Below, piece by piece: positions 21,301 through 51,249 of a DNA stretch of 64,000 nucleotides (positions within the stretch are counted from its first letter, which is position 1; every line of letters starts with the position of its first letter). Origin of the DNA: Bacteroidota bacterium (GTDB taxonomy: Bacteria; Bacteroidota; Bacteroidia; AKYH767-A; 2013-40CM-41-45); NCBI GenBank assembly GCA_016721305.1, contig JADKIH010000001.1, positions 192,091 through 256,090 of the forward strand. Direction: 5' to 3'. The translations under genes and the position numbers were made by a program. Under the pieces are notes generated by a model, which worked only from the letters and a program-made list of their open reading frames with translations, ran no database searches and was not told where the DNA came from.

Positions 21301-21870
21301 GAAATCAATGAACGCCATACCTTCATTATTACGCAGAAGGAAGACTTAGCCAAAGCGAAAGAATCGTTGCTCAAAACGATCGAAGAAATCGAGCTGACTG
21401 CAAAGGACAACTTCATGCAGGCCTTTACGATGATTCGCGAGAACTTCATCCACGTATTCCGCTCCCTCTTTACTCAGGACGATGATTGTGATCTGGTACT
21501 CATGGATCCATCGAATCCGACAGAAAGCGACGTACAAATCATTGCCAAGCCAAAAGGAAAACGTCCATTATCGATCAGCCAGCTTTCCGGTGGAGAGAAG
21601 ACGCTGACGGCTACGGCCCTCCTCTTCGGTATCTACTTATTGAAGCCGGCTCCGTTCTGTATCTTCGATGAGGTTGACGCGCCTTTGGATGACATGAACA
21701 TCGATAAGTTCAATAACATCATCCGCAAGTTCTCTAAGGACTCTCAATTCATCATCATCACGCACAATAAGCGTACGATGGCAGCTACCGACATCATGTA
21801 CGGTATCACGATGGTTGAGCAAGGAGTTACTCAGGTTGTACCGGTCGACTTAACTGAGATGGTTGAATAG
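18315..21870 (+). CDS. smc: Chromosome segregation protein SMC, broken into 3 consecutive ORFs (18315..19184, 19379..20515, 20419..21870)
   Basis: N-terminal Walker A (MRLTSLEIKGFKSFGDKV...GPNGSGKSNVVDSIRWVLGEQ), long coiled coils, C-terminal signature LSGGEKTLTATALLFGIYLLKPAPFCIFDEVDAPLDD. Confidence 0.85.
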
Positions 21871-23400: not shown

Positions 23401-24640
23401 TTACGGGTGAATGGCAAAAACACCGGCTGCATTATTTAAATCGAAATACGGATAGTCATTCGGATCTACGAAACCATCACCATTCAGATCAGACGCAAGA
23501 TAATCGCAGCATAGACCTGCTGAGTTTTCCGCATCGTAGATTGGATAGTCATTCGGGTCAACGAATTCATCCTGGTTGATATCTCCTGCATAGAGTGCGA
23601 ATACACTTGGCTCTACTTCAATAGCATTATCGCCCATTGTTGCTGAGCTCGAAGAAGTAAAGTCGATGCTTGATAAGGAACTGTTGATTGTAATCGGGTT
23701 AGCGCTCCACACCAAAACAGAATTACGATGCAGTACGGCTACGTAATAAGAGTTGCCTGGTAATAGCCGGAAGTGTAACCGAAGCTGTACCATCAACTTT
23801 GAGAACACCACGAACAGAAGCATCCACGATAGCCGGATTAGCTTCACGGTGTAACTCAACAGTAATACTATCGGCTTGTTCGTATGATACGCTCTTTACT
23901 GACTGATTCAACAATACGCTTTGCATTGTTGCTGAACCCATGTAGAATCCTTGTAGGTAAGCAGTCAATTGTAAAATTGGGAAGCAGTTTCCTGTATTGG
24001 CTAAAGTTGAAACCGGAGATCTGCCATCGGCATCCGATGTTGCATAAGTTTCCGTGTTGAATTTTGCTACACCGCCATAAGTACGTGCAGGGTAGAATAA
24101 TTCGTAGTTAGTCGTACAACCCGACTCTCTCCATGAGAAAGAAGTGCGCAGACGAAGAGGACTATTATTCTGTACGTAATTAAATTTCATGTCAGGCGTT
24201 GCGCAACCGAAGCTTGTAGAATTGGTTGCACGAATGCGTGCAATACGAACAGCATCAACATTTCCAACCAGTGTAGAAACACAAGTTGATGGTGATGGTT
24301 TCACATTGTAATTTACAGAGCAGTTGATCACCTTATCTGTAGAATTCCATTGATAACTTCCGTTATATCCCGGATAAGAAAGTTCAGAATAACCGGGCGC
24401 AGTCGACAATGCGAGTGTACCGCCGTTCCAAACTGAGTTAACATAGATCCCTGCCTGGAACGTACGCAAATCAAAAGAAGTGGTAGCTCCGCTGGCTTTA
24501 GCCATGATATCAAATTCATATATGCCTGGCGATATATACTGTGCATGATCAATATAAAATGACGCACTTGGATCAACAGCAAATGCACCACTTGCTTTCA
24601 TGATCGCTAGAGAAAGCAAAGTAAAAATCCTTTTTAACAT
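23401..24640 (-). CDS. Secreted protein (~410 aa, 2 overlapping ORFs) with a C-terminal dockerin/EF-hand-like module shared with the giant adhesin
   Basis: Signal peptide MLKRIFTLLSLAIMKASGAFA. C-terminus ...AYLQGFYMGSATMQSVLLNQ...YYVAVLHRNSVLVWSANP...GDINQDEFVDPNDYPIYDAENSAGLCCDYLASDLNGDGFVDPNDYPYFDLNNAAGVFAIHP is homologous to the C-terminus of the 31371.. ORF. Confidence 0.5.
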
Positions 24641-25283: not shown

Positions 25284-28200
25284 TTACTCAACTACAAGGC
25301 GAAGTGTTTGAGACTGGCCATCTTCAGCTGTTAAGCTAACCATGTACAATCCTTTAGCCACCTGGCTCATGTCGATTTCTTGAGTGTTGTAACCTTCAAC
25401 AGCAGTGATTACATCGCTAACGATAACATTACCTAAAAGGTCTGTTACTTTCACTACATATTTAGCTTTTGCACCTGCAGTGAATGCTACAGTTGCTTTG
25501 CCATTTGTAGGGTTAGGGAATGCTGTCAATTCAGTTGCAGTAGCCATAGCATCTTGAGCATCACGGCAGAACAAGCTTACGCTAACAGTTACACCACGGA
25601 GATGAAGCACCACAAGCATTCAATGCGTTAGCACGAACGATTGCTGATGAGCTCAGAGCTGTATTGTAGTAGTTAACGATAGCTGAAGTTCCAGATGGAG
25701 CGATTGAAGCACCACCAGTTACTGACCATGAGTAAGATGTTGCACCTGCTACCGGAACTAAGCTATAAGTAACCGCAGACTGTGATTTACAAACTGCTGT
25801 AGGACCTGTAACAACTGGAGGAGCAGGACGTGAAGTAACTGTGTAACAACGAGCAACACCTGAACCACAAGAGTTATTTGCAGTTACGCAAATGTTACCC
25901 TGAGTTGTGAATGCACCTGTGAAGTTAACAGTGATAGACAAGCCTGAGTTAGTAACGATACTAACACCTGCTGGAACTGTCCATGAGTAAGAAGTAGCAC
26001 CGGCAACAGCAGCGATTGAGTAAGTCACGTTAGACGTACCACAATTTGCGAAACCTGGACCAGTGATAGAACCCGGTTGAGTTGGAACGAATTTCACAAC
26101 GAATGAACGGCTATAAGTACCGCAACCGTTACCTACAGTGATTGTCACTGTTCCTGAAGTCCAAGATGGTCCCATTGCGAATGTAGCAGAAGTTGTTGTT
26201 GAAGTCTGACCTGATGTAACCAGAGTTGCACCACCTGTGATAGACCAAGTGTAAGTTGAAGCACCCGGTACTACAGGCATTGTGTAAGTAGCAGTGTTGT
26301 TAGCACATACAAACTGAGGACCCGTAACTGCATTAGAGTGAGTAGGGATACCTGTGATAGTCATACCACGAACCGGGCTAAGACCATAGCAGTTTGAACC
26401 ACGAACCTGGATTGAACCTTGTCCGAAACCTGCAGGAACTGAAACTTGAACTGTGTTAGTTCCCTGACCACTTACGATAGATACACCTGTACCGGTTACA
26501 GTCCAGATATAGCTAAGTGCGTTAGCAGAAGTTGTAGAGTAAGTATAAGTTCCAGGACCACAAGCTACAGCCGGACCAGAGATAACTGCCGGTTGAGAAG
26601 CGTAAGTAGCGATAACCGGAATGCTCATACAAGACTGTAAACCTGTACCACAAAGGTTAACCGCAGCTACACAGATGAATCCACCTGCATACGTGTTATT
26701 GAATGCTACAGTGATACTGTTTGTTGTAGAAGAACCAGTTGCGCCTCCAGGGAGTGACCATACATAAGATGTTGCACCAGCAACCGGAGCTACTGAGTAA
26801 ACAATACCTACTGAGTTACGGCAAGCACCTGATGGACCAGAGATCGCACCCGGAGTTGCAGGAGAACCACCTGAACCACCTACAGTAGCTGAAGCAGAAC
26901 CTGTACAACCGTTACCGTCAGTGATAATTACTGTGTAAGTTCCGATTGCAAGACCTGTTGCAGTTGCAGAAGTCTGACCATTTGACCAGAGGGTAAGTAT
27001 AAGAACCTGTACCACCTGTTGCACTTACAGTTGCAGTACCATCGCTACCAGCACAGCTAGAAGCTGTTGTAGTTGTAGTTCCTTCAACTTTAGCAGGCTG
27101 AGTTAATGTTACAGTTACAGAAGCTGAACAACCGTTAGCGTCAGTTACACTGTAAACTGCTGTACCTGCGAATTGAGTAAACACGCCTGTACCAACGTAA
27201 GCCGGTGTACCATCAGCTGCTGAAATAGTAACTGAAGTTGAACCACCGAAGCAAGCAATTGTTCCTGCAGAGTAAGAAGCAGTAAGAACAGCTACCGGAG
27301 CAGCTACGCCTGAACCTGGAGCAGAAGGACAACCATTAGCAGTTGCAGTTACTGTGTATGTACCTGCTGTGCTAACAGTGATACTAGATGTTGTTGCACC
27401 ATTGCTCCACAGTAATGAACCTGAAGCTGATGTAGACAATGTAGTCGTTGCATCACAGTTGTTAACCACAGTTACAACCGGAGTTGCAGGAGTTGGGTTG
27501 ATTGTCAACGCAAGGATCTCAGTGTGGCAACCTACTGTGTTAGTATAAGTACCAGATGCAGTATAAGTAGAACCGTTTACTGACCAAGTGTAAGTATCAC
27601 AAGCTGAAGCTGTAGTTGTGTTAGATGTACTTGGAGTGATTGTCAACACGAGGATTTCTGTGTGGCAACCTACTGTGCTAGTATAAGTACCTGAAGCAGT
27701 GTAAGTGTTACCGTCTACTGACCAAGTGTAAGTATCACAAGCTGAAATTGAAGTTGTGTTTGATGTACTTGGAGTGATTGTTAACACGAGAACTTCTGTG
27801 TGGCAACCAGTTACTACTGAATAAGTACCGCTTGCAGTGTAAGTTGTACCGTTTACTGACCAAGTGTAAGTATCACAAGCTGAAATTGTAGTTGTGTTAG
27901 ATGTACTTGGAGTGATTGTCAACACGAGGATCTCAGTGTGGCAACCTACTGTGTTAGTATAAGTACCGCTTGCAGTGTAAGTTGTACCGTTTACTGACCA
28001 AGTGTAAGTATCACAAGCTGAAATTGAAGTTGAGTTAGATGTACTTGGAGTGATTGTCAACACGAGAACTTCTGTGTGGCAACCTACTGTGCTAGTATAA
28101 GTACCGGAAGCAGTGTAAGTGTTTCCGTCAACTGACCAAGTGTAAGTATCACAAGCTGAAATTGTAGATGTGTTAGATGTACTTGGAGTGATTGTTAACA

Positions 28201-31200
28201 CGAGAACTTCTGTATGGCAACCAGTTACTACTGAATAAGTACCTGAAGCTGTGTAAGTAGTTCCGTTTACTGACCAAGTGTAAGTATCACAAGCTGAAAT
28301 TGTAGTTGTGTTAGATGTGCTTGGAGTGATTGTCAATACGAGTACTTCTGTGTGGCAACCTACTACATTAGTATAAGTACCAGATGCAGTGTATGTGTTA
28401 CCATCTACTGACCAAGTATAAGAATCACAAGCTGAAATTGTAGTTGTGTTTGATGTGCTTGGAGTGATTGTTAACACGAGAACTTCTGTATGACAACCAG
28501 TTACTACTGAATAAGTACCTGAAGCTGTGTAAGTAGTTCCGTTTACTGACCAAGTGTAAGTATCACAAGCTGAAGCTGTAGTTGTGTTAGATGTGCTTGG
28601 AGTGATTGTCAACACGAGGATCTCAGTGTGGCAACCTACTGTGTTTGTATAAGTACCAGACGCAGTGTAAGTGTTACCGTCTACTGACCAAGTGTAAGTA
28701 TCACAAGCTGAAATTGTAGTTGTGTTAGATGTGCTTGGAGTGATTGTCAACACGAGGATCTCTGTGTGGCAACCTACTGTATTAGTATAAGTACCAGAAG
28801 CTGTGTAGTCTGTACCGTTTACTGACCAAACATAATGATCACAAGCTGAAATTGTAGTTGTGTTAGATGTACTTGGAGTGATTGTCAACGCGAGGATCTC
28901 AGTGTGGCAACCAGTTACGAATGTATAAGTACCACTTGAAGTGTAAGTGTTACCGTCTACTGACCAAGTGTAAGTATCACAAGCTGAAACTGTAGTTGTG
29001 TTAGATGTGCTTGGAGTGATTGTCAACACGAGGATCTCAGTGTGGCAACCTACTGTGTTAGTATAAGTACCAGAAGCTGTATAGTCTGTACCGTTTACTG
29101 ACCAAACATAATGATCACAAGCTGAAATCGAAGTTGAGTTCGATGTACTTGGAGTGATTGTCAACACGAGAACTTCTGTATGGCAACCAGTTACTACTGA
29201 ATAAGTACCTGAAGCTGTGTAAGTAGTTCCGTTTACTGACCAAGTGTAAGTATCACAAGCTGAAGCTGTAGTTGTGTTAGATGTACTTGGAGTGATTGTC
29301 AACACGAGAACTTCTGTGTGGCAACCTACTGTGCTAGTATAAGTACCTGAAGCAGTGTAAGTGTTACCGTCTACTGACCAAGTGTAAGTATCACAAGCTG
29401 AAATTGTAGTTGTGTTAGATGTACTTGGAGTGATTGTCAACACGAGAACTTCTGTGTGGCAACCTACTGTGTTAGTATAAGTACCGCTTGCAGTGTAAGT
29501 TGTACCGTTTACTGACCAAGTGTAAGTATCACAAGCTGAAATTGTAGATGTGTTAGATGTACTTGGAGTGATTGTCAACGCGAGGATCTCAGTGTGGCAA
29601 CCAGTTACGAATGTATAAGTACCACTTGAAGTGTAAGTGTTACCGTCTACTGACCAAGTGTAAGTATCACAAGCTGAAATTGTAGTTGTGTTAGATGTAC
29701 TTGGAGTGATTGTCAACACGAGAACTTCTGTGTGGCAACCTACTGTGTTAGTATAAGTACCAGAAGCTGTATAGTCTGTACCGTTTACTGACCAAACATA
29801 ATGATCACAAGCTGAAATTGTAGTTGTGTTCGATGTGCTTGGAGTGATTGTCAACACGAGGATCTCAGTGTGGCAACCTACTGTGTTAGTATAAGTACCA
29901 GAAGCTGTATAGTCTGTACCGTTTACTGACCAAACATAATGATCACAAGCTGAAATTGTAGTTGTGTTCGATGTGCTTGGAGTAATTGTCAGATTGAGGA
30001 TTTCTGTATGGCAACCTGAAACTGAAGTATGAGTTCCGCTTGAAGTGTAAGTGAAACCATCTACCGGCCATGTGTAAGAATCACAAGCTGAAATTGTAGT
30101 TGTGTTTGATGTACTTGGAGTGATTGTCAACACGAGAACGTCTGTGTGGCAACCAACAACATTAGTATATGTTCCGCTGGCAGTGTAATCAGTGCCATTT
30201 ACAGACCATACATAATGATCACAAGCTGAAATTGTAGTTGTTGTTGAAGAACTTGTAGTGATAACAAGGTTCAGGGTATGAACTACAGAACAACCATTTG
30301 CGCCATCATTTGTAGTCGCAGTGTATGTTCCTGACTCAGTATACGTTTGTCCGTTTACAGGCCAGAAATAAGAATCACAAGAAGAGATAGACTCAGTAGT
30401 TGTTAATTGAGCAGGCTGACCAATTGTTACCGTAGCTGTAGATGTACAACCAGGAGTGTTTGGATCTGTAGCAGTAACTGTGTAAGTACCTGCAGCAAGA
30501 CCTGAAGCAGTAGCACCTACTTGTTGTGGAATTGTACTCCATGTATAAGTAGCAGCACCTACAGAACCTGTAGAAGAAGCTGTAGCAGTACCATTAGAAC
30601 CACCGAAGCAAGTTGGTTGAGTTGAACCTTCAATTGAAGCGCTGATTGCACAAGAACTTGGAATAGACATTGCGCAAGGAGTAGATAATGTCTTAGTTAA
30701 TGCTGTAGCTAAAGATACTGTAGTAGCACAGTTTAAGAACATGTTAGCAGAAGCAGTTGTAGCCCAAGTTAAACCAACGTTGGCTCCCGGGTTAAATCCC
30801 TGGCCAAGAGTGTTTGAAATTGTTAAACTGAAACGACCAATTTTCTTAGGAACACCAATCGGAAGTGATGGTGCAACACCATTACAAGAACCGTTACCGT
30901 TGTTCGCATAAGCAGTAGTACCAGAACCTACCGACATCTGACGAACAGCAGCCGTATAAGTAGCAGTAACTGTAGATGTTGGAGGCCACATCAAAGGAGC
31001 ATCCGAAAGTCCATCCTGCACATAAGCAAAGGTGAATGTGTTCACACCTGTTGTTGGAACCAAACCCGTAGCATGGGTCAAACGAATAGTGGCAGCCTGA
31101 AGATTCAGAGCGCCCGGCCCGGTATTAGTTACCATCACATCAAATGAAATTACATTCGATGTAGCCGTACAGTTTGCAGTAGACAGTGTGTAACCCTGCC

Positions 31201-31282
31201 CACTCGACGTCGCCAGTCCCGTCAGAAAGACGAGAAGAGTCATAAGAACTCCTCTGGTGAATAAGTGCGTACTTGTTTTCAT
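25284..31282 (-). CDS. Giant (~2000 aa) T9SS-secreted repeat adhesin, 3 ORF pieces (26918..31282, 25582..27024, 25284..25619), with ~21 tandem 46-aa repeats, SprB-like Cys-containing repeats and a canonical T9SS type-A C-terminal sorting domain
   Basis: Signal peptide [28 protein letters not shown]. Repeat unit [46 protein letters not shown]. C-terminal [13 protein letters not shown]...[13 protein letters not shown]...[25 protein letters not shown] is the classic Por secretion CTD. Confidence 0.7.
27470..30390. repeat. ~21 near-identical 138-bp tandem repeats inside the adhesin coding sequence
   Basis: The DNA reads agtgattgtcaacacgag(g/a)a(t/c)ctc(a/t)gtgtggcaacc... with a 138-bp period; the protein period is 46 aa. 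Confidence 0.85.
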
Positions 31283-31370: not shown

Positions 31371-34300
31371 TTATGGATGGATTGAGAAGATACCAGCAGA
31401 GTTGTTGATATCGAAGTACGGATAATCATTCGGATCTACGAAACCATCACCATTCAAGTCAGTTGTAATGTAATCACAACACAAACCTGCTGAGTTATCG
31501 ATGTCATAGTACGGATAATCATTCGGATCTACGAATTCATCCTGGTTGATATCACCTGAGAAGATTGAATAGATACCTTCTAATAAATCATCAGCTGCCA
31601 TTCCACTCATAGACTGGATAGGATCAGTAGAGAAGTCGTAGCTAGCCGGTGTAGCTGTTGCTAATGCAACCGGAGCTGCAGACCATGTAAGAACTGAGTT
31701 ACGGTGACGGATAGCAATGTAATAGTTACCATCTAAGCCACTCACAACAGCTGAACATGTTCCATCTGTCATCAATACTGCCTTTGTAGAGCCGGCAAGT
31801 AAGAATGTATTCTCATCATAAATCTCAACAGTGATTGTGTCTGTCTCAAGACCTGTAGCACCTGCTACTGCCTGATTCGCCAATACCGGTTGCATTGTTC
31901 CTGCACCGATGTAGTAACCCTGGAGGTAAGCAACAAGGTCAATTTGCATTGGATTGCCACAAGGATCACCTGTAGAAGTTACATCAACACTGTTCGATAC
32001 TATTGAACAACCAAATGCATTCGTAACTGTGAAGCTGAATGAATATGGGTTAGCGAAGATGAATGAGAAGTTGCTGTTATCAACAAACAACGAGTTACCT
32101 GTTGAACCATCGAAGTCGTTCCATGCGATAGAAGCACCTGCGCCTGCACCTGTTGTGTCGGCATTCAGAGTTACGCTACCTGTAGCACACAGGATCGGAT
32201 TTCCACTTACAGAGATAACTGCAGTTGTAGGAGACGGATTAACCGTGATATCAGTCGACAATACTTGTGTACAACCGTTAGCATCAGTTACAGTTACTGT
32301 GTAAGTTCCAGCAGTTCCTGTAGTGATACACTCTGTAGTTTCAGATGAAGACCAAGAGAACGTGCTGTATGTAGCTGCAGGTAATACGCAGATACTAACT
32401 GTTCCTGGAGCACAAACTGAAGCCGCAGAACCGGTAGACAATGAAGCCGGAATCACAGTGAATACGTTGATAGTCTGAGAAGCTGTTGCTGTACAAGTAC
32501 CGTTAGCAACTGTCAGAGTATAAGTAGTTGTTGCAGTAGGGTTCACAGAAAGAACTTGTGAAGTACCAACCACGCTAACACCGTCTGACCAGCTGTAGCT
32601 AGTGTAACCTGCACCACCATCCAATGTTACGTTGCTACCACCACAAATTGTAGTTGCGCTAGGAACGATTGTAGGAGCTGTAAGTGGAGTGTAATCGATT
32701 GTTACACTTGCGCTGCTTGAACAACCTGTAGAGCTTGACGCCACAACTGTGTAAGTTGTAGTTGCTGTAGGACATGCATGTAATGTAGGACCTGTTACAG
32801 AACCCGGATTCCAAGTATAAGTGATTGGACTTCCAGTGATACCGTAAAGTTGCATGTTCGGACGCTGACTAAATGTATTGATTGTAGATGTCGGTGCGAA
32901 TGTCACAACACTACAGTTACCATCAGCATGTGTTTCTGCAGTTGAAACGAATGCAGTAGTTGATTGATTTACTACATCGTTATCTGCGAAGTCTGTACAT
33001 GCCGTTGTAGGACATGTTGCACAATTCACCAATGATACGTCAACGACTACGTTGCTTGTACCATTCCAGCTGAATGGAGTCGTGAAGTTGAATGTATTCC
33101 AACCTGTAGCACTGAAGTACGTTGCAGGATCAGTATACACTTGAGTCATACCTGAACTTACAAACGCTGCAGACATTGAAGTAGCTGAAGTTGCTGCCAT
33201 TGAAACCTGGAAGTTCATGACTCCATTAAGTGCTCCAAGAGAAACAACATCAAATCCTAATTTAGAGATTGGACCTGCTACCAAACCTTGAGCAGAAAGC
33301 TCAGATGCAAGGATCAGATACTGCTCGTGGTGAGCTGTCCAGAACTGACCCAATGGAGCCGGCTGACTAGACGTAGTATTCTGAACTGTACCTGTACCGA
33401 TAGTTACCGTTGCAGGAGCAGAAACTGTTGCACCAACAACTGACAGATCTACACACTCACCTACGTTACATACTGAAGTAGCAGTTGCACTGATTACCGG
33501 AGTTGCAGGAGTTTCATTTACATTGATTGTAATTGAAGCAACTTCCTGGCAAGTAGCAAATGTACCTGTTGTGTTATCTATTGCACCAACGAAGTAAGTC
33601 GTAGTTGCACTTGGAGTTACTGTGTAAGCAGCACCTGTGAAGATCACAGTTACGCCATCAGTTGACCAACCGTAAGTGTAGTTAGGATCGTTAGAACTTG
33701 TAGCAGTAAGCGTAAGAGTAGTACCTGAACAAATTGTGTTTGAAGGCGCACTGTTAGTAATTGTAACAGTTGGAGCCGGATTCACAGTTGCAGTTACGAA
33801 TTGACGACCTGCAGGATCTAAACATGTACCGTCGTAAGCAATTACCCAGAATGTAGTAGTTGATGTTACGTTCGTAGTATATGTTGCTGTGTTAGTTGCA
33901 AGAGGTGTACCACCTGAAGAGTTGGCATACCAGTCGAAGCTACCTACACCTGTTACGCTCATTGTTACTGAACCAAGACCACAACGTGTAGCGTTAGTTA
34001 CAGAAGTAATTGAAGGGCTTAATACTGTCACCAGAGCCGAAGCTGAAGTATCAGCAGAACCACTACATGTTACATAAGCACGGTAGTAAGTAGTTGCAGA
34101 GATTGAACCTGTAGTATACAGAGCAGAGTTAGCTCCTGAAATGTCAGTCCAAGTATCAATCAAACCTGAAGCAGATTCTTGCCATTGGTATGATGCACCT
34201 GAAGTTGCATTTGTTACAGTCAACGTTACCGGACCTGATCCACAGATTGTAGATGGAGATGCAGAAACCGTTGGTGTAGCAGGAGTTGCAATTACATCTA

Positions 34301-37300
34301 CAGTTACAGATGCAGTTGATGTACATCCTGTAGATGCATCAGTTGCTGTTACTGTATAAGTAAATGTGCCTGTAGAAGATGGAGTCACAACTTGTGTTCC
34401 ACCAGATAATGAACCCGGATTCCATACGAATGTAACACCAGGATTTGGAGTGATCAATGTGATTGCATAGTCTTCAGTTGAACCTGAACCCATTGCAAGA
34501 CAAGCGTCACCTGAACCGTTAGTATTACCATTCAGACGTGAACGGATACGCATTCCTGTTAAACCCGGAGAAGCAGTAACCGGTACGTTAATAGTAACTG
34601 TACCAGAAGCAGCTGAAGTCCAAGGTTGAACCCACTCAGAAGCGTCATAAACGCCATCACGGTTGTAGTCAATCCATACTGAGATGATTGATGTACCACC
34701 TGTAGCAAGTGTCATTGTATAAGAAGCGCCTGTAGCAAGTGTAGTTGTCTCTGTTCCAACCGGTGCATTCACATGATAGAATGGAGATACACAAGCAGGA
34801 GGAGTACTGTTCAATGTATTGATCTGAACAGAAGTTACACAAGAAGAACCGGCATTAGTTACTGTACAGTAACCTGAAGGAAGAGTATTCGGTCCGATCA
34901 GATCAGATGTAGCAAATAATGTAGAGCTTGATCCTAAACAGATAGTTGAAGGAGTAGCTGATGCGGTATTGATTACCGGAGGAGCTGTTGTCGTTACAAC
35001 TACTGAAGATGTAGTTACACAATTGTCATCAGCATCAGTTGCTGTTACAGTATACGTGAATGTACCGCCTGCAGTTGGAGTAACTGTTACAGGAGAGCCT
35101 GACATTGAAGTCGGGATACCTGAACCTGATACAGGGAAGGCTGTCCAAACATATGTATACGTATTCGTTGAACCTGTCTGTGTTGCAGTCAAGTCGAATG
35201 AACTGTTACCACAAGCTGAAGAAACGCTTGATGAAGCTGTTACTGCATCCGGACTACTTACTGTCTGAACTACCGGTGTACGGAGTGACTCGCAAGTACC
35301 ATCGAATTCTGCTACATAGAATGTAGTTGTAGAACTGATTGTGTAAGCTGTAAGAGTTGCACCTGTTTCACCTGAAATTGGAGTACCACCTGTTGGAGTC
35401 AAGTACCAGCTGAATAAACCACCTGAACCTGAAACTGAACAATTTGGAATACCAACACCACACTGATTGTTATCAGTAGCAGTTGGAGCAGAAGGAAGTG
35501 GATTCACTGTTACATCAACTGTTGCAGTTGAAGTACAACCTGAAGCCGGATCTGTTGCAGTTACAGTGTATGTAGTGTTAGATGTCGGATTCACAGTAAC
35601 AACGTTTCCGCTGCTGAGTGATCCCGGACCCCACTGCCATGCATATGAACCTGCACCTGAAGTAGTAGCATAATTTATGCGAACGTTATCAATTGCCCAT
35701 CCTGCGTATTCAACGCTTGTATCAGATGTGAAACGGAAACGTACACGGAATGTAGTTGCTGAACTTACTGAAGCAAGACTGATAGTCTCATGTTTCCAGA
35801 AACTAGTTGCAGGACCTGCAGGGTAAGTTGAAGCTGAACCGGTAAATTGAGCTGACCAGTCTGCATAGCTACTAGTTTCCCAACCAATCGCACCTGCAGC
35901 TACCATATCCGGAGACAATGTACCGGCACCTAAGTAAGCAGCAAGAGGGAAGTTCAACCAAGTTGCACCACCGTTGAGTGAGTACTCGATGCGACCATAG
36001 TCGAATCCGTTCTCAGAAGCACAGATATGCCAGAATTCAAATGTCGGACTAGATAATGTACTTAAGTTAACGTCAGTTGTCATTGACAAGCTTCCGTCAG
36101 CTGAAGGTACATAAGTATTCTTAGCCGATGCAGCACCTTCCTGGAAGTATGTTCCATTCAATGCCCAAGTCACACCTGTTCCGCTTGTAGCGAATGATGC
36201 AGGGAATGTCTCGAAGCCTTCGTGGAATGATGAACCTGCAGGTAAGCCTGTAAGTGCTGTAAGCACTACATCTGAACCTGAACATACTGTACTAGGACTA
36301 GCTGTAGCTGAAGTGATGTTTGGTAATCCTGTTACAGTTACCACTACCGAAGAGGCTGTTACACAACCGGCAGTTGCATCAGTGGCAGTTACAGTGTAAG
36401 TATAAGTACCTTCTGCAGTCGGAGTCACAGATACAGGTGAACCTGTTTCTGATCCTGAAATACCGCTGCCTGTTGAAGGACTAGCAGAGTATGTTAATAC
36501 ATAAGTGTTTGTAGAACCTGTTTGTGTTGCAGTCAATGTGATTGCCGAACCTAAACATGTTGGTGAAGAAGCTGCCAGAGATATTGCATCCGGATTAGTT
36601 ACTTCTGCAATTACTTCTGCACGTGGACCTTCGCATGTACCATCGAATTCTGATACATAGAATGTTGTTGTAGAAGATACTGTGTAAGTAACCAATGAAG
36701 TTCCTGACTCACCTGCGATTGGAGAACCGCCTGTAGAAACAGTATACCAACGCATGATACCACCTGAACCTACTGCAGATGCCATTGGCACACCAACACC
36801 ACACTGTGTAGAGTTAGTAGCTGTAGGAGCTACAGGAACAGGGTTAACTGTTACGTCAACTGTTGCAGTTGATGTACAACCTGATGCAGGATCTGTTGCA
36901 GTTACTGTGTAAGTATTAACACCAATAGATGAAGGTGTTGCAGTTACACTGTTTCCTGACAATGAACCAGGATTCCATGTCCATGTATAAGTACCAGGAC
37001 CTTGACCGCCTGTCATCGCACCAAACGTCATAATCGGACGTGAAGTTGATGTTGAGCTACCAGTTGCATCTGTGCAACCTGTTGTAGTACCTGATCTATG
37101 AGTGTTTGCATTGAAACCAACGGTTTCAGTAACTATTGTTGCAGTTCCTAAAACGCTGTTTGTCTGACAAACATTGATCAACAAGTTAGATGTACCATTC
37201 CAGAAGAACGGAGTTGAGAACGTGTGTACGTTCAATCCTGCAGATACAGGAGTGAAGCTCGCAAGAGTGTACACAGATGTCAATGACGTTGTCTCGAATG

Positions 37301-40300
37301 TAGTCGACAATGCGGTAGCACTTGTATTAGCCATACCGATTTCGAAGTTAATCATCGTACCTGTAGAACCGGCTGTTGTAGTGAAGGCAAGACTAGTGAT
37401 ATTACCAGGTGCCATTCCCGCAGCAGTTAATTCGCTGGCAAGAACTAAGAGTTGAGATCTGATTTGGTTACCACCACCGTTACCAGAACGATATGGGTTA
37501 CCTTCATTTCCACCGATTGAACCTGTACCTGCACCACCTGTACTTACTGTACCCGGAGCGAAGTCGTTAGTCAATCCCTGTTAATGTTGTAGACTCACCT
37601 AAACAAACTGTGCTAGGAGATGCTGTAGCAGAACCGATAAACGGAGCTGCACCAACAACAACAGTCACAGAAGAAGACGCATTACAGAATCCGTCAGTTA
37701 CATTGAGCGTATAAGTATACGTTCCTGCTGCTGTCGGAGTAATTGTAAGAGCTGTGCTAGGCACATACGAGCCTGTCAATGGAGTAGTAATTCCACTTCC
37801 TGTTGAAGGCGAAGCAGATAATGTATAATCTATCCAAGGATAAGGGAGTGTACCGTCTGTCATAGTAAGAGTAACAGTACCACCTTGACATGCCGGACTT
37901 GTAGCTGAAAGAACCACATTACCTGCATCAATTACATCCTGGAATACGGCAACACGTGCACCTTCGCAAGTACCATCGAATTCAGATACATAGAATGTAG
38001 TCGGAACTGAGATTGAGTAAGCTGTAAGTACTGTGCCCGACTCACCTGCAATCGCTGTACCACCTGTTGGAACAGTGTACCAACGCATTAAACCACCTGA
38101 ACCTACTACTGTACAAGTTGGAACACCAGGTCCGCACTGAGCATTGTCAGTTGCAGTTGGAGTTGCCGGTAATGGATTAACCGTTACAGTTACGTTCGCG
38201 AAGTTTGAACAAACTCCGTCGTTCGCTTCTACTGTATAAGTAGTAGTTGTTGTAGGAGTTACAGTTACAGTATTTCCTGACAATGAACCAGGATTCCAAG
38301 TCCATGTAAGTGAACCGGCACCTGTTGTAAGTGTCTGAGCACCGAAACGCATGTTTGGACGAACTGAGTTAGATGTCGTAGCTGCTGTAACTAATTGAGG
38401 GTTACAACCTGCTCCATCTGAATAGTAGTAACTGTGTGAAGTAAATGCAGTTGTTGTATTGTTTACAACGGCATTCTGAGTGTATGATACACCGCTACCT
38501 GTAGTATTACAAGTTGTACTTGCAGGACCAACACAAGAAGGACAATCACTGAATGTGATATCAATCAGGACATTCGAAGTACCATTCCAGAAGAATGGAG
38601 TCGAGAATGAGTGACTTGTCCAACCTGCTGTAGGGTTGAAGTTACCTACTGTGTAAACCTGAGTAGCACCTGTTTCGAATGTTAATGAAGCAGTAGTACT
38701 TGCTGTGTTCTTCATTGAAATCGTGAAGTTTCCATAACCAAGTGCATTTGTATTGCTCACAACGTCGAAACCTAATGATGTGATGTTACCTGCATACATT
38801 CCTGAAGCTGAAAGCTCAGAAGCAAGAACAATCATTTGGTGACGGTTACCTGTGTAGTAGTTACCATAAGGAGGCATGTTTGTAGTAGTAGAAGTACCGT
38901 TTTGGAGTACGCCTGTTCCTACTGTAACATCACCTGCGGCAATAATCGGTGTTTGTGCTGTTAACACTACTGATTCACCTGCACAAATTGTAGATGGAAC
39001 TGCAGTGATAGAGCTGATAGTCGGAGGTGTAGTTACTGTTACCACAACCTGAGCTGTAGTAGCACAACCTGAACCTGCGTCATTTGCATTTACCGTATAA
39101 GTGTAAACACCACCGGCAGTTGCCTGAATAGTCTGAGAAGCACCAGTCAACGGAGTAGTAATACCGCTATTTGCTGAACTTCCAGTCCATGAATAAGCGT
39201 AGTTTGGATCATTTGTACTTGTTGCATCCAATGTAAAGTTAATGAACGGACAAGTTGTTGATACAGTTGATGTAGCTGTAACAGCAATTGGAGATGTTAC
39301 CTCTGCTATTACTTCTGTACGTAAGCTTTCACATGAACCATCGAATTCAGAAACATAGAATGTTGTAGTCGATGAAATTGTGTAAGCTGTTAAATGATCT
39401 TGCGACTCACCTGAAAGTGGGCTACCACCTGTTGATGCAAGGTACCAACGGAATAAACCGCCTGAACCTGTTACTGCACAACCCGGGATGGCTGTACCAC
39501 ACTGAGTTGAGTTAACTGCAGTTGGAGCAGCAGGAAGTGGATTTGTATTCACTACTACCGAAGCTGTAATTGAACAACCATTTGCGTCTGTAGCGATCGC
39601 AGTGTAAGTTGTTGTTGCAGTTGGCGTTACTGAAACCGATGCACCTGTACCTACTGTAGAAGTACCATCTGACCAAGAGAATGTTACTGTTGGAGCTGTG
39701 TTAGCTGCAAAAGTGAATCTTGGACGACTAGTACCTGTGCCTGTAGCTGTAGTAGAAGCTAGCATTGTAGCAGGAGTTTCAGAATCTGCCTGACGGTAAG
39801 CTGAGCATGTGAAACCAGGAGCATCAACTTTCATTGTTGAACCTGTAGCAGTTGTTGCAGCCGGTACACTAGACCAAGAAACAGATACAAGGATATTTGA
39901 TACTCCGTCCCATGTCCAGCTTGAGCTTGAACCGGCACCGGTACCGAATGTGAATGTATTTACAGTGTTTGCTACCGGTGTAATTGCGTCGTTCACACCT
40001 GTACCGAGGTAAACCTGAGTAAGACCAGTAGTTACAAAGGCAGTTGTCATTGCTGTCAACGATGTTGAAGCAAGGCTAACTGAGAAACCATTGTATGTGG
40101 TACCGGATGTTGTCGGTTCGTAAGAGATCGCTGTGATAGGACCTGCACTTACACCAATAGCAGCCAATTCCGATGCCTTGATAATGTATTGTGTTTTAGC
40201 ACCACCCCAACCTCCTGGTAAGAAGGAAGCAGCTGTAGATGCGGATGTGGATGCACCTGCACCAAGAACTGCATTGCCTGGTTTAGAAGCAGCAGAAGAT

Positions 40301-43300
40301 AAAGTAACTGACTGACCTAAACAAACCGGATTTGGAGTTGCACTTGCCGTAGCAGTTGCGCCTAACATTGGCTCATCTGCATAAGATGTTCCTGTGATAG
40401 ATGGAGTATAAACTCCGTCTGTAGCAACAGCAGAATAAGTAACTGTAGCGTTAACCGGTGTAGTAGCTGCAGGAATTGTTCCTGTCCAGCTAGTAGGACC
40501 ACCTGTCATTGCAACAGTTGTTGGTGTACCACCATTATATGCATAAGTAAGGTTAACACCTGTAACCGGAAGAGCTCCGTCTACAGTTGTAACTGTAATT
40601 GTACGAGCTGTAGCTGTACATGCTATACCTGATGGACTCGCAGAAATTGCAGTAATCGCAGGTTGAACCTGTGTACCTGCAAATTCGTCAGCACCGATAT
40701 CCGGAGTTGTTCCGCGTGTATCGCCATCGAAGTCAGTTGTAACACCACTGATAGTAGCAGCACCTGATTCAGCAGCTGTAGAAGCACCTGCAGTGAAATG
40801 CAAGAATGTTGAAGCTGAACCTGTAGTACTTGCGAATGTTGCATTCTCAAATACTGACGCTTGCTCACGTGGAGCTAAACCAGCCAACACTTTGTAAGCT
40901 GCTAAAGTAGCCTGAGCTGCTGTTCCGTCGTAATAAACCGGAGTCGTAGCTGTACCACCTGTGAAATACAAGTTGTTGTTAGATGTAGAAGCAAATGCTG
41001 TAAATGTTGCAGCAGCTCTTCTGAAACCAACAGCCAATGATGTACCGCCTGCGTTCAAGCCGTTATAGATGATGTTGTTACGTAAGTTAACAGAACCAGG
41101 AGTTACTGTAGCGCTTACACCTGAACTACCGCCTGAAGTTGTTCCAGACAAACGGATAGTGTTGAAGTAAACATTTACTGTTGAACCACCTGTTAAGCTA
41201 ATACCCATGATAGCATTTGTACCGGTTGCACCAACTGAGTTGAGGTTACCGATGATGTTATTACGGAGAGTAACAGTTGTACCTGAAGTAACAGACATAC
41301 CTGTGATTGTAGAAGCACTACCACCTGCCGTAAGGTCATAAACCTTGTTGCTAGAATAAGTTGCAGTCAAAGATGCAGAAGAAGTAATACCTGTAATTGT
41401 ACCACTGCTGGCTGCTTGCAATGTTGCTAAGCCTGCAACTGTGTTACCACTTACTGTACGTAATGTTGTAGCAAGTGTATTGTTCACAATACCGCGAATA
41501 GAATGAGTTGAAGTTGAAGCACCACCTACTGTTAAGTTAGTAATTGTGTTGTTTGTAACTGTCTCATCTGTTGAAGAACCTGCGTTAGAGAAACCGGTGA
41601 TTGTACCGACACCAGCAGACAACGCTGTAATTGTGTTATTGTTAATTGTATTACCTGTGAATGTGTAAGCTGTTCCGGAAGCTCCAGAAACAACAGCACA
41701 GTTCATTGTACAAGCAAGAGCACCACCTGCGATAACGTTACCTGTGATGGTGTTGTTATCGTAGTGATTCACACTAGCTGGAGTAGCAACAGAGCTAGAA
41801 CCGGCAGTGTATGTTGTCATAGTACCGGTTGAAGTCTTAGTGTTGTTAGTAATAGTGTTATTGCTAACGGTAATTGTACCAGGTGTACCTGTATTGGCAA
41901 TACCTGTGAATGTTCCTGTTCCTGATAATGAGTTAGTAGAAACAGTATTGAATGTCATTGTAACATTCGCATTCGTACCTGTTAAACCTGAAGTGATACC
42001 TGTGAATGCAGCAGTTGTTGCAGCAGACAATGTACAGTTCTGAACTGTGTTATTGCTGATGCTTGCTGTATTACCTGTACCTGAAGAACCCCAAGTGATA
42101 CCGATTACGGCACCGGTTGTAACTGCCGGAGATACAGAAACAGTATTACCTGTGATTGAACCGTGTGGACCGCTACCACCGTTGATACAAGTTAATGCAC
42201 CTGTGTGAGCAGCTGAAACACTGTTGATCTGGTTATTGGAAACTGTGATAGCACGGTTATCAGCGAATGATACAACAGTACAAGCAACAGTACTACCACC
42301 GAAGTTAGTGAAAGTGTTACCTGATACTGTATTCAATGTATCGTTTGTGCTAGATGTACCTGAAGCTGCCGTAGCTGCATTGAAGATAACACCACCGTAA
42401 GTATTCGTGATTGTGTTATTTGTGATGCTTACTTTGTTACGGAAGGCCTGGATACCTGCTGCATCACCTGCTACTCCACCATATGTAAATGTTGTAGAAG
42501 CAAGATCTGTAGTGTTTGCAACACGTACACCGATTGCAGCTGTATTAGCTTTATTTAATGTGATTACACCATTTGTGTAAACTACATCGTTAGATCCATT
42601 TACGTTATCGCATTTGTAAACACCAAGACCTGCTTCCATTTCTACTGTAGCAGATGCTGTATTACCGTCGAACAGGTCGATACCGTCGAAAGTAATGTTA
42701 TCCATACCAACAACGTCAACGACGTCATCCGTAAACGTACTTCCCGCACCCGTACCTACACCTGCACTGATCTTCGCATTAGCACCGGCACCTGCTTCCA
42801 CAAACGTTACTGTTTGTGTAGGACCTGATTGTAAACCTGAAGCGAGAGCACACATCTTGAACACGATACCTGCTGAAGGAGCTGTTTCAGTGTAACCTGC
42901 TGCAACGTTGAATACAACGTTACCTGCAACACCTTTAGTATTCAAGTCGTTTGCTGCAGCTGCGAAGCTTGCATAGTTTGAACAACCTGAACCACCAATA
43001 GTATATGTTCCTGAAAGCGGACCACTTGGAGAGATCACAACCGGAGCTGAAGTAGCTGAACATCCTACTGAACTTGTTACAGTTACAGTGTATGAACCTG
43101 TTGTTGAAGTAGAGTAAGTAGCTGCATTCGGACCTACTGAAGTAGTACCATTCAATGTATAAGCGTAAGTAGTAATTGTCTGTGGACTTGCAGAAGCCGT
43201 TGTTGTCAACGTTGCACTGCTTCCACCTAACAATGTTGTACAGTCAGCAGCAAGTGATACTGTTGGAACTGTACCTACTGTTAATGTAAGTGAAGAAACC

Positions 43301-46300
43301 GCTGCAGCACAAGAACCTGCTCCATCCGGATCGTCTGTAGTTAAAGTAATCGTAACTGAACCTGCTGCGATATCGGCAACAGATGGAGTGTACGTTGTAG
43401 CTGTACCGAATACATTCGATGGATTGAATGTACCTGTACCGCTTGATGACCATGTAGCTGTTGTAGCTGTACCACCGATAGAACCGCCTAATGTATAGTC
43501 ACCACCGCAAATTGTTGCGTTAGCACCTGCAGAAGCAGTTGCCGGAGTTGTACAAGGGCTGATAATAAATGATGCTGCAATTGTATGATCTGCTGCGATA
43601 GCTGTAAATGTGTATGAACCAACAGCACCTACAGAAACTCCGTCAACCAGAACGTCATCAACTTGATAACCTGCGTCAGGAGTGATAGTAAATGAAGGTG
43701 ATGTACCACAATCAACAACTACAGCACCTGACGGAGCAATTGTTCCGTTTGATCCTGCAGAAGCAGTAACAGTGTATTGAATCATAGTTACAACAAATGG
43801 AGCTGAAGTAACAGCACAACCATCAGTAATTACGTCTACTGTATAAGAACCACCTGCGGTTGCTGTATAAGTAGCATTTGTTTCACCGCTGATAGGGTTA
43901 CCGCTTTCGTTCCACTGATATGTTGTAGTTGCACCTGAAGCAGTTGCAGTTAATACTGAAGGACTACCAGTACAAATTGTTGAACTTGTTCCTGAAACGC
44001 TTACTGATGCATTATTAACAGTAATAGTTGCTGTTCCTGAATTTGAACAAGAACCGATAGTAGCAGTTGCAGTATAAGTAGTTGTTGAAGTCGGAGTTAC
44101 CGATACACTTGCAGTTATGTCTGAAGTGTTTGGTGACCATGACCAAGTTGGATTTGTAACTGAAGAATAAGTAAAGTATGTATTCAGACGGTTAGCGCTA
44201 GTTGTAGCTGTTGGATTCATTACAGTAGCAAGATCCGAAGTAGCGCTTGTAGTAGATGTTGTAGCATATACTGCAGTGTTACCGGAAGTAGCTGTGTAAT
44301 ATGTCTGAGCATTGTTGATATTGTCAACACCATCCTGACGAAGATCGACTAAGAGGTTTGAAGTACCATTCCAAGCATAAGGAGTTGAGAAAGTGATCAC
44401 GTTGTTTCCTACTGCATGACTGTATGTTGCAGGACCGTAAACCAATGACAAACCTGATGTTGTGAATGTAGTCAATGTTGATGTACCAACTGTTCCCATG
44501 TAAACACGGAAGTTAGTTACATTCGTATTATCACCTAATGTTGTGATATCGAATCCGATTGAAGTGATGTTGCCGGCAAAAATACCTGCAGCATTCAATT
44601 CAGCCGGTGTAAACACCATCTGGCACCAGTACTGAGCCCAACGGTTACAGAAAGCTGTAGGTTGAGAAGTAGAACCGGACAACGAAGTTGCTGTTCCTAC
44701 AACACCTGCTCCTGATGAACCGATTGTACCACCCGAAGCAACTAATGTCTCAGCCGATGTTCCGCAATGTAATGCAGAAGCCGGAGTGATAGTTACTGCT
44801 GAAGGAGTAGCATTTACGGTTACAGTTGCTGTTGCTGTTGTGTTACAACCAGAACCATCTAACGCACTTACTGTGTAAGTAGTAGTAGATGTTGGGCTAA
44901 CACTATAAGAAGCAGCAGTTGGACCACCTGTCCAAGTGTATGTATAGTTCGGATCGTTTGAACTTGTTGCAGTCAAAGTTGTGCTCTGACCGTTACAAAT
45001 TGTTGTCGTTCCGCCGATAGATACTGATGGAGGTGCGTTTACTGTAACGATTACCTCAGTACGCGGTGTACTTTCACATGTTCCATCGAATTCTGTTACA
45101 TAGAATGTAGTTGTAGCAGAGATAGAAGTTGTGTAAGTAGCCGATACTCCCCGATTGAATTGGTGAGCCTCCTGTAGAAGCTGCATACCAACGGAAATTC
45201 GGTGTTCCTGCACCTGTTGTAGAAGTAACAGAAGCTGTTGGAACGTGAGGACCGCACTGTGTTGAGTTAGAAGCTGTCGGAGCTGATGGAAGCGCTACTA
45301 CAGACACAGAAGCTGTGCTTGCAGAAAGTGTACAACCATTTACATCCGTTGCAGTAACCGTATAAATAGTAGTTCCTGTTGGAGTTACTGTTAATGGGCT
45401 ACCTGTTCCAACTGAACTTGTTCCGTATGACCATGCAAATGTTAAGCCTGAAGCAGCTTTAACACCTGTCCATGTGAATTTCGGACGGTTTGAGTTCGGA
45501 GTTGAAGATGAACCACCTGATGGAGTTCCAGTTGTTCCGCAGATAGTCGCAGATGTCTGACTATCTTGCTGCCAGCCGAAGTTACATACATATGAAGCAA
45601 CATCATATTTGATAGTGCTTGATGATGATGTAGTAAGGCCTGTGCTCCAGCAGAAGCTAACAACGATATTTGATGTTCCGTTCCAGTTGAATGGAGTTGA
45701 GAACGTAAGTGTATTTACACCTACTGTCGGAGTATAGCTTGCACTTGTATAAACGTCAGTCAAACCTGAGAAGAAGCTGTTAGTCATTACAGTGTTAGCT
45801 GTAGAACCGATGCTTAATGCTAAATCAGGGTAAGCCTGACCTGAAGTTGTTGCTTCAAATGATAAAGCTGTGATGTTACCGGCAGACAAACCTGCTGCAG
45901 TAAGATCAGAAGCTCTGATTAGGTATTGAGTTTTTGCACCACCCCATGATCCAGGGAACATTGTTGTTCCGAGTGATGAAGATGTGCTTGCGCCTGCTCC
46001 AAGAGCAACCGTACCATTTTGAGTAGCAGCACCTGTTAAAGTAGTTGTGCTACCTGTACAAACTGTGAGCGGAGAAGCGGAAGCCGAAGCAGAGTAACCT
46101 GTTAAAGGCTCGTCCTGATAAGAAGTTCCTGTCAACGAAGCATTCAGTGGAACGCTGTTAGTTGCAGTTACGCTCCATGTTACAACAGCATTCACAGGTG
46201 TACCGACAGGTATTGTTCCAACCCAAGTGTTACCTGATGAATTTGTCATTGTAATAGGAGACTGAGCAGTACCATTAAAACTGTAGTTTAATACTACTCC

Positions 46301-51094: not shown

Positions 51095-51106
51095 ACTGGC
51101 AGGCGG

Positions 51107-51246
51107 ATTAGCTGATTAGCTGATTAGCTAATTAGCTAATGTTGGCAATTTGGTTAGTTGGTTACTCTATTATATATGTATACTCTTTTATTACTTGTAT
51201 GCTACACTATTCACTCATCAGCTAATCAGCTAATCAGCTAATCAGC
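51107..51246. repeat. Inverted arrays of GATTAGCT/CAGCTAAT octamer repeats around an AT-rich core
   Basis: gattagctgattagctgattagctaattagctaat (51107..51150) ... cagctaatcagctaatcagctaatcagccaat (51205..51246). Confidence 0.8.
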
Positions 51247-51249
51247 CAA

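Follow-up and report, generated by a model that had tools for sequence, protein, structure and literature searches.

How does a giant Bacteroidota adhesin reach and hold its place on the cell surface when it does not end in a recognizable type IX secretion system (T9SS) sorting domain? The question is raised by 64,000 nucleotides of a Bacteroidota genome, hereafter the window (assembly GCA_016721305.1, contig JADKIH010000001.1, positions 192,091 to 256,090 of the forward strand), in which the gene for a giant surface protein closes with a module of 193 residues carrying two calcium-binding loops. A first-pass annotation of the sequence had taken this tail for either an alternative sorting or anchoring signal or a dockerin-like module that docks onto a cohesin-like surface partner, and had proposed profile searches and structure prediction as checks. 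On the sequence comparisons and structural models described below, the module is, on balance, probably a calcium-dependent docking unit by which the passenger is held on a surface receptor specific to the genome.

The module at the end of the giant surface protein

Translation of window positions 31371-32390 on the minus strand yields ...GNPMQIDLVAYLQGYYIGAGTMQPVLANQ...YYIAIRHRNSVLTWSAAP...SGDINQDEFVDPNDYPYYDIDNSAGLCCDYITTDLNGDGFVDPNDYPYFDINNSAGIFSIHP*. The tail peptide quoted by the first-pass annotation is thus encoded exactly, terminating in ...NSAGIFSIHP* with a TAA stop codon at 31371-31373; the plus strand over the coordinates first assigned to the tail holds only stops, which places the feature on the minus strand. 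The gene starts near 48817 (M-ENNNYPTKR...) with a signal peptide ending ...CLFTSQADA/QV, followed by Ig_7, GEVED and PKD-like repeats identified by Pfam, with the module last. Its final frame segment is the open reading frame (ORF) 31371-37574 on the minus strand. Because this segment stays open for 2,069 uninterrupted codons, a hairpin resembling a terminator follows the stop codon, and homologues, one of them 93% identical, end at the same residue, the module represents the true C-terminus. The frame breaks upstream are most likely assembly indel errors, since the essential SMC chromosome-segregation gene of the same window (18315-21870, plus strand) is also split, into ORFs 18315-19184, 19379-20515 and 20419-21870. 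This points to indel errors as the source of the breaks in the giant gene and in both of its neighbors. The features discussed here are collected in Table 1.

Table 1. Features of the window, in window coordinates, with the evidence or remarks that accompany each.
Feature	Coordinates	Strand	Evidence or remarks
PorV/PorQ-family barrel gene	8945-10015	-	150 bits to PorV_fam, below the PorV, PorQ and PorV2 equivalog cutoffs
Gene for a 1,353-residue protein	10047-14108	-	No Pfam match; sole NCBIfam match weak, to the C-terminal end of PorZ
Second module-bearing gene, one frame break near 23723-23859	23401-24640	-	Signal peptide, ~215-residue domain, XDoc-like module
Gene downstream of the giant gene, frame-broken into 3 ORFs	25284-31282	-	Candidate surface receptor or carrier; gene order recurs elsewhere
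T9SS type A C-terminal domain of the downstream protein	25290-25520	-	PF18962 3e-13; TIGR04183 3.2e-12
Novel N-terminal domain (N-dom) of the downstream protein, residues 25-210 (~185 residues), all-β, motif ..FDVxVxNTG..	30653-31210	-	Homologues downstream of or fused to modules
Terminator-like hairpin directly 3' of the stop codon	31327-31362	-	15-bp stem with 8 GC pairs, T-rich tail
Giant surface protein gene, ~5,815 codons, six frame segments	31371-48817	-	Frame map, N-terminus, Pfam matches
C-terminal XDoc-like module, 193 residues, codon-exact	31374-31952	-	Translation; 63 close homologues; AF2; Foldseek
Dockerin-like sub-domain, residues 129-193	31374-31568	-	Two F-hand repeats, helices 143-155 and 174-186, terminal ...FSIHP
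Calcium-binding loop 2, DLNGDGFVDPND, residues 165-176	31425-31460	-	N167, D169, G170 and D176 invariant
Calcium-binding loop 1, DINQDEFVDPND, residues 134-145	31518-31553	-	D134, N136, D138 and D145 in at least 90% of homologues
X-like sub-domain (β-sandwich), residues 1-128	31569-31952	-	AF2 strands E2-106; conserved columns

The module is composed of two sub-domains. The N-terminal, X-like part carries the conserved motifs LQGYY, DTIxVEL, YYIxIxHRNSxxTWS and YDFS, as seen in an alignment of 63 homologues and in 42 full-length family members, and finds no match in Pfam, NCBIfam or the PDB sequences. Its residues ~80-92 (31677-31715, minus strand) form an almost invariant polar patch, H-R-N-x-x-x-T-W-S, in which the arginine and threonine are invariant and the histidine, asparagine, tryptophan and serine at least 90% conserved among the 42 members. 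The patch may serve as the interface between the X-like and dockerin parts, as a receptor contact, or as a ligand site.

In the C-terminal part, both loops place D or N at positions 1, 3, 5, 9 and 12, all of them invariant or at least 90% conserved in the homologues, and D165, G168 and D173 of the second loop are likewise conserved in at least 90%. The same ligand positions are constant across 277 non-redundant members. A profile built from 33 homologues matches solved dockerins in the PDB over both repeats (5lxv_B, 6.7e-7; 6kg9_A, 3e-5; CelS 2mte_A, 6.7e-5; 1daq_A), among them the CelS and CelL dockerins at ~1e-4, with dockerins ranking above EF-hand proteins. The Pfam dockerin family PF00404 (Dockerin_1) is detected at E<=1e-3 in 13 of the 42 full-length members, with a best E-value of 4.8e-10. 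The Pfam EF-hand models (PF13202 and relatives) give no significant match to the window module, EF-hand_5 scoring E=0.43; its EF-hand, FG-GAP, invasin and polyhedrin matches were discarded as sub-threshold noise.

The AlphaFold2 (AF2) model of the 193 residues, computed with the homologue alignment as input, is very confident, with a predicted local distance difference test (pLDDT) score of 95.8 and a predicted template modeling (pTM) score of 0.90. It describes a single rigid body in which a β-sandwich (residues 1 to ~110-128) packs on two loop-helix repeats, and the two-helix dockerin part, with β-bridges joining the loops, scores a pLDDT of 92-97. When this model is compared with the PDB by Foldseek, ranks 1-7, from six entries, are all type II X-module-dockerin (XDoc) dyads of the CipA and ScaA scaffoldins: 4wi0_B (3.6e-6), 4u3s_B, 5g5d_B, 3kcp_A, 4fl4_C with 4fl4_I, and 2b59_B. 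The alignments span ~190 columns with TMq values of 0.50-0.56 (0.52-0.56 for 4wi0_B, 5g5d_B and 2b59_B). Transthyretin-like sandwiches rank after the XDoc dyads and cover only the first half of the module. On the strength of the dockerin profile matches, the AF2 fold, and the whole-module Foldseek alignments, the tail is read as an XDoc-like dyad and not as two isolated EF-hands. The dockerin assignment of the window module is confirmed through the family profile and the predicted fold; of the two readings of the loops in the first-pass annotation, type I dockerin or EF-hand, the dockerin reading has stood and that of isolated EF-hands has fallen.

A family in the place of the T9SS sorting domain

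The module belongs to a very large, uncurated family with a nearly fixed position. All 63 homologues from a database search carry it at their extreme C-terminus. An exhaustive profile search of cluster representatives at 50% identity returned 21,212 matches at E<=1e-3; stricter cutoffs left 13,462 (E<=1e-10) and 4,149 (E<=1e-30). The best 150 representatives are 180 to 4,586 residues long, and almost all of them are matched up to their last residue. Among complete modules, 269 of 327 end on the last residue of the protein and 315 (96%) within 3 residues of it. The few exceptions are tandem copies (five in protein P0064, three in P0069, and two in P0065), internal copies (P0066-P0068), and fusion-like ORFs. 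In source records, family proteins are named "hypothetical", "IPT/TIG domain-containing" or "dockerin type I domain-containing".

P0064 (1313 residues), P0069 and P0065 are "poly-dockerin" proteins, in which the signal peptide is followed by the tandem XDoc-like modules; a by-eye impression that the last ~140 residues of P0064 form a type A T9SS domain was dropped, as neither Pfam nor a type A hidden Markov model (HMM) confirmed it. In three sampled loci (L051, 8741-17521; L011, 164-2242; L076, 2353-4836), the reading frame runs on past a complete module for hundreds to thousands of residues, and the L051 ORF terminates in a type A domain. These long ORFs reflect either stop-codon loss that fused adjacent genes or sequencing errors.

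Sampling of one genome per species gave 78 loci, a set skewed toward relatives of the query. They derive from Bacteroidota (Chitinophagales, Flavobacteriales, Bacteroidales, Saprospiraceae and Lentimicrobium) or Ignavibacteria, apart from a few obviously mislabeled metagenome-assembled genomes (MAGs). A database search with the X-like domain alone left this taxonomic breadth unchanged. Many genomes are multi-copy, with at least 11 module copies sampled in one, and tandem arrays of 3-6 module genes occur.

The recognized C-terminal domains (CTDs) of T9SS cargo are of type A, type B or, as recently described, type C (ChiA) (PMC10202324, PMC9936825). The window module matches neither the type A models (TIGR04183/PF18962), at E<=1 or E<=10, nor the type B models (TIGR04131/CHU_C), the latter also failing on eight diverse modules at E<=10. 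The eight modules, drawn from different sub-classes, have zero matches to any T9SS model of NCBIfam even at E<=10. No T9SS CTD model matches any of the 42 full-length members, and for type B this holds at E<=1e-3, with the positive control run for TIGR04183 and not for TIGR04131. In that control, made in the same run, TIGR04183 recovers the neighboring ORF 25284-25619 at 3.2e-12. The module has no NCBIfam match of any kind, and so none to a type C CTD (cl41395, ChiA-type), in a library that may lack the type C model. By the type A and B models, the tail is therefore not a canonical T9SS CTD, as the first-pass annotation had claimed, and the annotation was also right that the adjacent ~2,000-residue adhesin bears a type A domain.

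The passengers are of the kind that T9SS exports. Among the 42 full-length members, they comprise Ig_7 ("CHU_C-associated"), SprB repeats, GEVED, PKD, β-helix, reprolysin and M36 peptidase domains as well as choice-of-anchor D/J/O/Q/Z domains, and one matches NF038113, "T9SS-dependent M36", at 1.7e-260. Scanned with an offline type A CTD HMM, the loci yield 52 CTD-bearing ORFs; among the ~170 module ORFs only one, which is fusion-like, is detected. Neighboring paralogues whose tails differ, one closing with the module and the other with a type A CTD, have passengers that are 77% identical over 808 residues (L015), 75% over 524 residues (L030) and 59% over 258 residues (L024). Read from these identities, the difference between them is a recent exchange of C-terminal modules, an argument that with either tail the passenger arrives in one and the same compartment. 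On the same comparisons, the module sits in the C-terminal slot normally held by a T9SS sorting domain on surface adhesins and proteases, and the "anchoring signal" half of the first proposal holds to that extent.

This replacement also invites the alternative that survives best, namely that the module is itself a fourth class of T9SS signal, read by a T9SS component or by a PorV/PorP-like shuttle, with a dockerin-like fold co-opted for the purpose. We consider this unlikely, though it deserves serious weight and is compatible with docking. The almost invariably terminal position, a final proline conserved in at least 90%, passengers that are typical T9SS cargo devoid of any other CTD, near-identical paralogues bearing one tail or the other, and the origin of all 78 loci, a few mislabeled MAGs aside, in phyla that possess T9SS all speak for it. 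Precedents exist in type B CTDs, which pair with specific shuttle proteins (PMC12618676, PMC9143113), and in the recent type C (PMC10202324, PMC9936825). The phyletic argument is weakened by the bias of the sample, and the module is dissimilar to the type A and B models and finds no type C match, with the caveat on the library given above. CTDs of known structure are simple Ig-like β-sandwiches and have no EF-hand loops (PMC10202324); a binding module accounts better than a terminal signal for the tandem and internal copies; and no PorV/PorP-like gene is enriched beside module genes.

A putative recognition code and a candidate receptor

In cohesin-dockerin pairs, the two proteins recognize each other through positions in the dockerin repeats and helices. 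When the two 24-residue repeats of the 277 non-redundant modules are aligned, positions 7, 10, 11, 13, 14, 16, 17, 20, 21 and 23 are highly variable in the family, mostly with entropies of 2.7-3.3 bits. Within a protein, the two repeats nevertheless match at these positions in 52-87% of cases, where 14-40% is expected; agreement reaches 0.84 against 0.16 expected at position 10, and 0.78 against 0.17 at position 11. The recognition residues thus possess an internal two-fold symmetry, as in cellulosomal dockerins. At the variable positions, identity is 71% for paralogues within a genome and 21% across genomes, whereas for the X-like domain it is 46% within and 37% across. Repeats that co-vary, are uniform within a genome, and differ between genomes indicate a recognition code. 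A surface that is uniform in the genome and variable among lineages is what one would predict if every copy in a cell bound a single, co-evolving receptor.

The window itself contains two module genes with one signature. The second, previously unnoticed module-bearing gene (module HMM 4.6e-52 for ORF 23401-23859 and 9.2e-21 for ORF 23723-24640) carries the dockerin signature VDPNDYPxYD...NSAG / LCCDY of the giant protein.

The gene immediately downstream of the giant gene encodes, in order, a signal peptide, the N-dom, more than 20 tandem repeats of ~52 residues, PKD_6, and a type A CTD. The tandem repeats (26918-30650, minus strand) are nearly identical to one another and have no Pfam match. 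In the window and in loci L010, L014, L015, L043 and L053, a gene for a signal peptide and N-dom lies 10-92 nt downstream of a module gene; an N-dom HMM places the domain at the N-terminus of that gene in the five loci, at distances of 10-39 nt. A weak match stands 121 nt downstream of the module gene in L063, and the N-dom also heads genes directly downstream of module genes in L085 and L086. These pairs span different orders and at least six dockerin signature classes. Complete N-dom proteins encoded downstream of module genes end in a type A CTD, and the minimal case, L015, consists of 282 residues with only a signal peptide, the N-dom and the type A CTD. A reciprocal metagenome scan, seeded with the N-dom alone as a three-sequence alignment, recovered two loci, each with a module gene ending 75-92 nt upstream. 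In other cases the N-dom is fused to the module in a single protein (P0123, P0180, P0163, P0126, P0130, P0169, and in loci L012, L019 and L041), with P0123 comprising, in 401 residues, a signal peptide, the N-dom and the module. Conserved gene adjacency and domain fusion are classical evidence of a functional link, and by both the N-dom is linked to the module.

These observations can be arranged into a mechanism. The last ~190 residues would act as one rigid, Ca2+-dependent docking unit in which the X-like β-sandwich is packed on the two-repeat dockerin. Following Sec export, indicated by the signal peptide, the two near-identical helix faces of the module present the genome-specific code; this code would bind one cognate receptor per genome and so fix the passenger to the cell surface. 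The receptor may be the N-terminal domain of the protein encoded immediately downstream, which is the best candidate only; since that protein carries a T9SS type A CTD, it would itself be T9SS-exported and surface-anchored.

A more ambitious version, which we regard as doubtful, extends this to a cohesin-dockerin-like surface display coupled to T9SS across Bacteroidota and Ignavibacteria. Thousands of adhesins and proteases with an XDoc-like tail would bind, by genome-specific code, the N-dom of a small type A CTD protein, then either hitch-hike through T9SS on this carrier or be captured at the surface, and finally be tethered non-covalently to the carrier's anchor. Proteins that fuse N-dom and XDoc would permit head-to-tail chains and scaffold-like assemblies.

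Several points weigh against docking as the function of the module and against its proposed receptor. As regards the module, (i) its fold is a prediction, (ii) the window sequence by itself stays under the Pfam dockerin threshold, with 15.5 bits (E=0.02) for PF00404, only repeat 2 aligned, and a gathering cutoff of 22.9 bits, (iii) TM-scores to the XDoc dyads are moderate (0.50-0.56, with a root-mean-square deviation of ~5 Å), and (iv) the X-like domain bears no sequence similarity to cellulosomal X modules. Gene conversion, instead of selection by a partner, may partly explain the uniformity of the repeats within genomes, and a docking module alone leaves the translocation of a 5,800-residue protein across the outer membrane unexplained. 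As regards the receptor, the module-seeded loci hold 127 unique module genes, of which only 6 (and a further one by a weak match) have an N-dom gene directly downstream, and the N-dom could simply be another adhesin domain within adhesin gene clusters. No Pfam cohesin occurs among the window proteins tested, and the N-dom shows no cohesin similarity by Pfam, PDB profile search or hhalign. Its profile has zero matches among PDB sequences, a database search with the N-dom returned none, and hhalign of a CipA cohesin-2 sequence against the N-dom alignment gives a probability of 0.1%; the same cohesin sequence matches none of the 1,474 locus ORFs. An AF2 model of the N-dom computed from a single sequence (pLDDT 45) is too poor for judging, and its Foldseek matches (best E 9e-3, cohesins at E 0.07-0.14) are uninformative. 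Because it lacks cohesin similarity, is poorly modeled, and adjoins only a minority of module genes, the N-dom is put forward tentatively, as a possible receptor and the best candidate at hand. Of the docking proposal in the first-pass annotation, the dockerin-like module has been upheld, while no recognizable cohesin partner was found and the novel N-dom takes its place as candidate.

A partner other than a protein is improbable. Under this alternative, the module would anchor its passenger, through Ca2+ and the X-like domain, to a surface glycan such as the O-antigen of lipopolysaccharide (LPS), A-LPS, or capsule. In its favor, transthyretin-like folds and further β-sandwiches, the Bacteroides DUF3823 among them, match the X-like domain more weakly, the polar H-R-N...T-W-S patch of this domain is strongly conserved, polysaccharide-synthesis genes (Wzi-like, sugar transferase, deacetylase) lie just upstream of the giant gene, and a genome-specific code could follow strain-specific glycans. 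The variable symmetric residues, however, fall on the dockerin repeat and helix positions that serve protein recognition in cohesin-dockerin pairs; moreover, no carbohydrate-binding module family is matched, and the gene-pair and fusion links point to a protein domain.

That the tail is an ordinary cellulosome-type dockerin, bringing an enzyme to a cellulosome-like complex for polysaccharide degradation, is highly improbable. The profile similarity to cellulosomal dockerins and earlier sightings of dockerins in rumen Bacteroidetes (PMC6487960) favor it, but the passengers are Ig/PKD/SprB-type adhesins and metalloproteases, with no carbohydrate-active enzyme in the 25 commonest Pfam families of the 42 members, no Pfam cohesin is detected nearby, and the obligatory fused X-like domain and strict C-terminal place are unlike enzyme-borne type I dockerins. 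Lastly, the reading of the tail as a frame-break artefact, or as what is left of a pseudogene, has next to no probability: for all the five breaks within the giant gene, it is refuted by the single frame of the last 2,069 codons, the terminator, and the common end point of the 93%-identical homologue and hundreds more, and the broken SMC gene makes assembly errors the probable source of the breaks.

Neighboring genes and comparison with known systems

Clustering of the gene neighborhoods of 82 loci reveals neither a PorV/PorP-like gene nor anything else as a conserved partner. Small-protein cassettes are accompanied by response regulators and Y_Y_Y sensor kinases, and the remaining shared families reflect synteny of related loci. 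The porU- and porV-like genes that the first-pass annotation placed within 15 kb could not be sustained, as the PorV/PorQ-family gene is 21 kb away and no PorU was found (the 10047-14108 gene gives only the weak match to the end of PorZ). That barrel gene belongs to a three-gene block (8945-17862, minus strand) together with the 1,353-residue protein, whose C-terminal end is weakly similar to the PorZ CTD, and a 1,243-residue protein resembling CarboxypepD_reg/Plug/TonB-dependent receptors. The block may represent a specialized shuttle/cargo pair; it is not PorU. Upstream of the giant gene, 49457-55069 holds polysaccharide-related genes for a Wzi-like protein (weak match), a bacterial sugar transferase, a polysaccharide deacetylase and a weakly matched pectate-lyase-like protein.

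The small-protein cassettes have a constitution of their own. In L001, L003, L005, L025, L028, L044 and L056, near locus coordinate 10000, proteins of ~260 residues consist of a signal peptide, a segment of ~50 residues with the motif QSxSxxVIASxGG...LTQGFQQP, and the module. Adjoining them are one to three large proteins, all of which start, past the signal peptide, with the motif (A)PQAIPYQGVARD; in one such protein there is a tail-fibre chaperone domain, Peptidase_S74. At least L001, L005, L025 and L056 also contain a response regulator together with a sensor kinase of the Y_Y_Y type. The ~260-residue proteins may serve as adaptors for a surface fibre.

The implications reach beyond one locus. 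Current predictors of T9SS cargo count only proteins with a type A, B or C CTD, whereas at least 4,000 clusters at 50% identity combine passengers of T9SS type with the dockerin-like tail; if these proteins are surface-exposed, then an unrecognized route sorts or anchors a sizeable share of the surface proteome in Bacteroidota. CTD-less yet T9SS-dependent proteins are an unexplained observation in the Flavobacterium columnare secretome (PMC9936825), and docking of the module on a type A CTD protein, if it occurs, would suggest how such proteins depend on T9SS; it would also be the first time that assembly in the cohesin-dockerin style is seen in a Gram-negative phylum. For surface display, the genome-specific code would supply docking pairs that are orthogonal and can be switched by Ca. 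The docking idea is directly testable, since the cultured Flavobacterium strains CYK-55 and 3HN19-14 carry the module and 3HN19-14 has the N-dom gene pair as well (L043).

Four known systems provide the points of comparison. With T9SS CTDs of types A (TIGR04183/PF18962), B (TIGR04131) and C (cl41395), the module shares its position in the protein, its phyla and the kinds of passenger domains; it is likewise multi-copy per genome, and it swaps with type A between close paralogues. It differs in that it matches no model tested, possesses EF-hand-type loops and helices, is about twice the size of a type A CTD, and is occasionally tandem or internal.

Non-cellulosomal dockerin-like modules in Bacteroidetes were reportedly described by Peer et al. 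in 2009. Dockerins in Bacteroidetes were noted earlier in a rumen survey as well (PMC6487960). Both reports have dockerin repeats outside a cellulosome context in common with the present family; the fused X-like domain, the strict C-terminal place, the replacement of the T9SS CTD, the code and the N-dom link are not known to figure in them. A literature search found no paper on a C-terminal family of fused X-like and dockerin domains, on a link between XDoc or dockerins and T9SS cargo, on the code, or on the N-dom pairing. What seems new here is the XDoc-type, probable docking module in a Gram-negative, T9SS setting, dockerins in Bacteroidetes being already known.

The closest structural counterparts are the type II XDoc dyads of Clostridium thermocellum CipA (2B59, 3KCP, 4FL4, 5G5D) and Acetivibrio cellulolyticus ScaA (4WI0, 4U3S), which have the same architecture: a β-sandwich lies immediately N-terminal to a two-repeat calcium dockerin and packs on it, and the two together close a very large surface protein that is not catalytic. 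Those dyads tether the giant protein to a surface anchoring protein whose gene is often adjacent to that of the scaffoldin, and the arrangement in the window is alike. Type II dockerins are usually less symmetric, whereas the two repeats of this family are strongly symmetric. The host here is a Gram-negative Bacteroidota with an outer membrane and T9SS instead of a Gram-positive clostridium, the X-like domain is larger (~128 residues) and not detectably similar in sequence to the X modules of cellulosomes, no cohesin is recognizable, and the passengers are adhesins and proteases in place of cohesin arrays.

A further parallel is the XDoc of Ruminococcus flavefaciens ScaB and CttA, which binds the cohesin of ScaE, a minimal anchor that joins a single cohesin to a sortase signal. 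The N-dom is not recognizably a cohesin, anchoring would use T9SS and A-LPS in place of sortase and peptidoglycan, and the interaction is hypothetical; the L015 partner nevertheless follows the same logic, with one candidate receptor domain joined to a signal for covalent sorting to the cell surface. At the level of gene order, the pairing of module and N-dom genes resembles the cipA-olpB-orf2p and ScaB-ScaE arrangements of cellulosomes.

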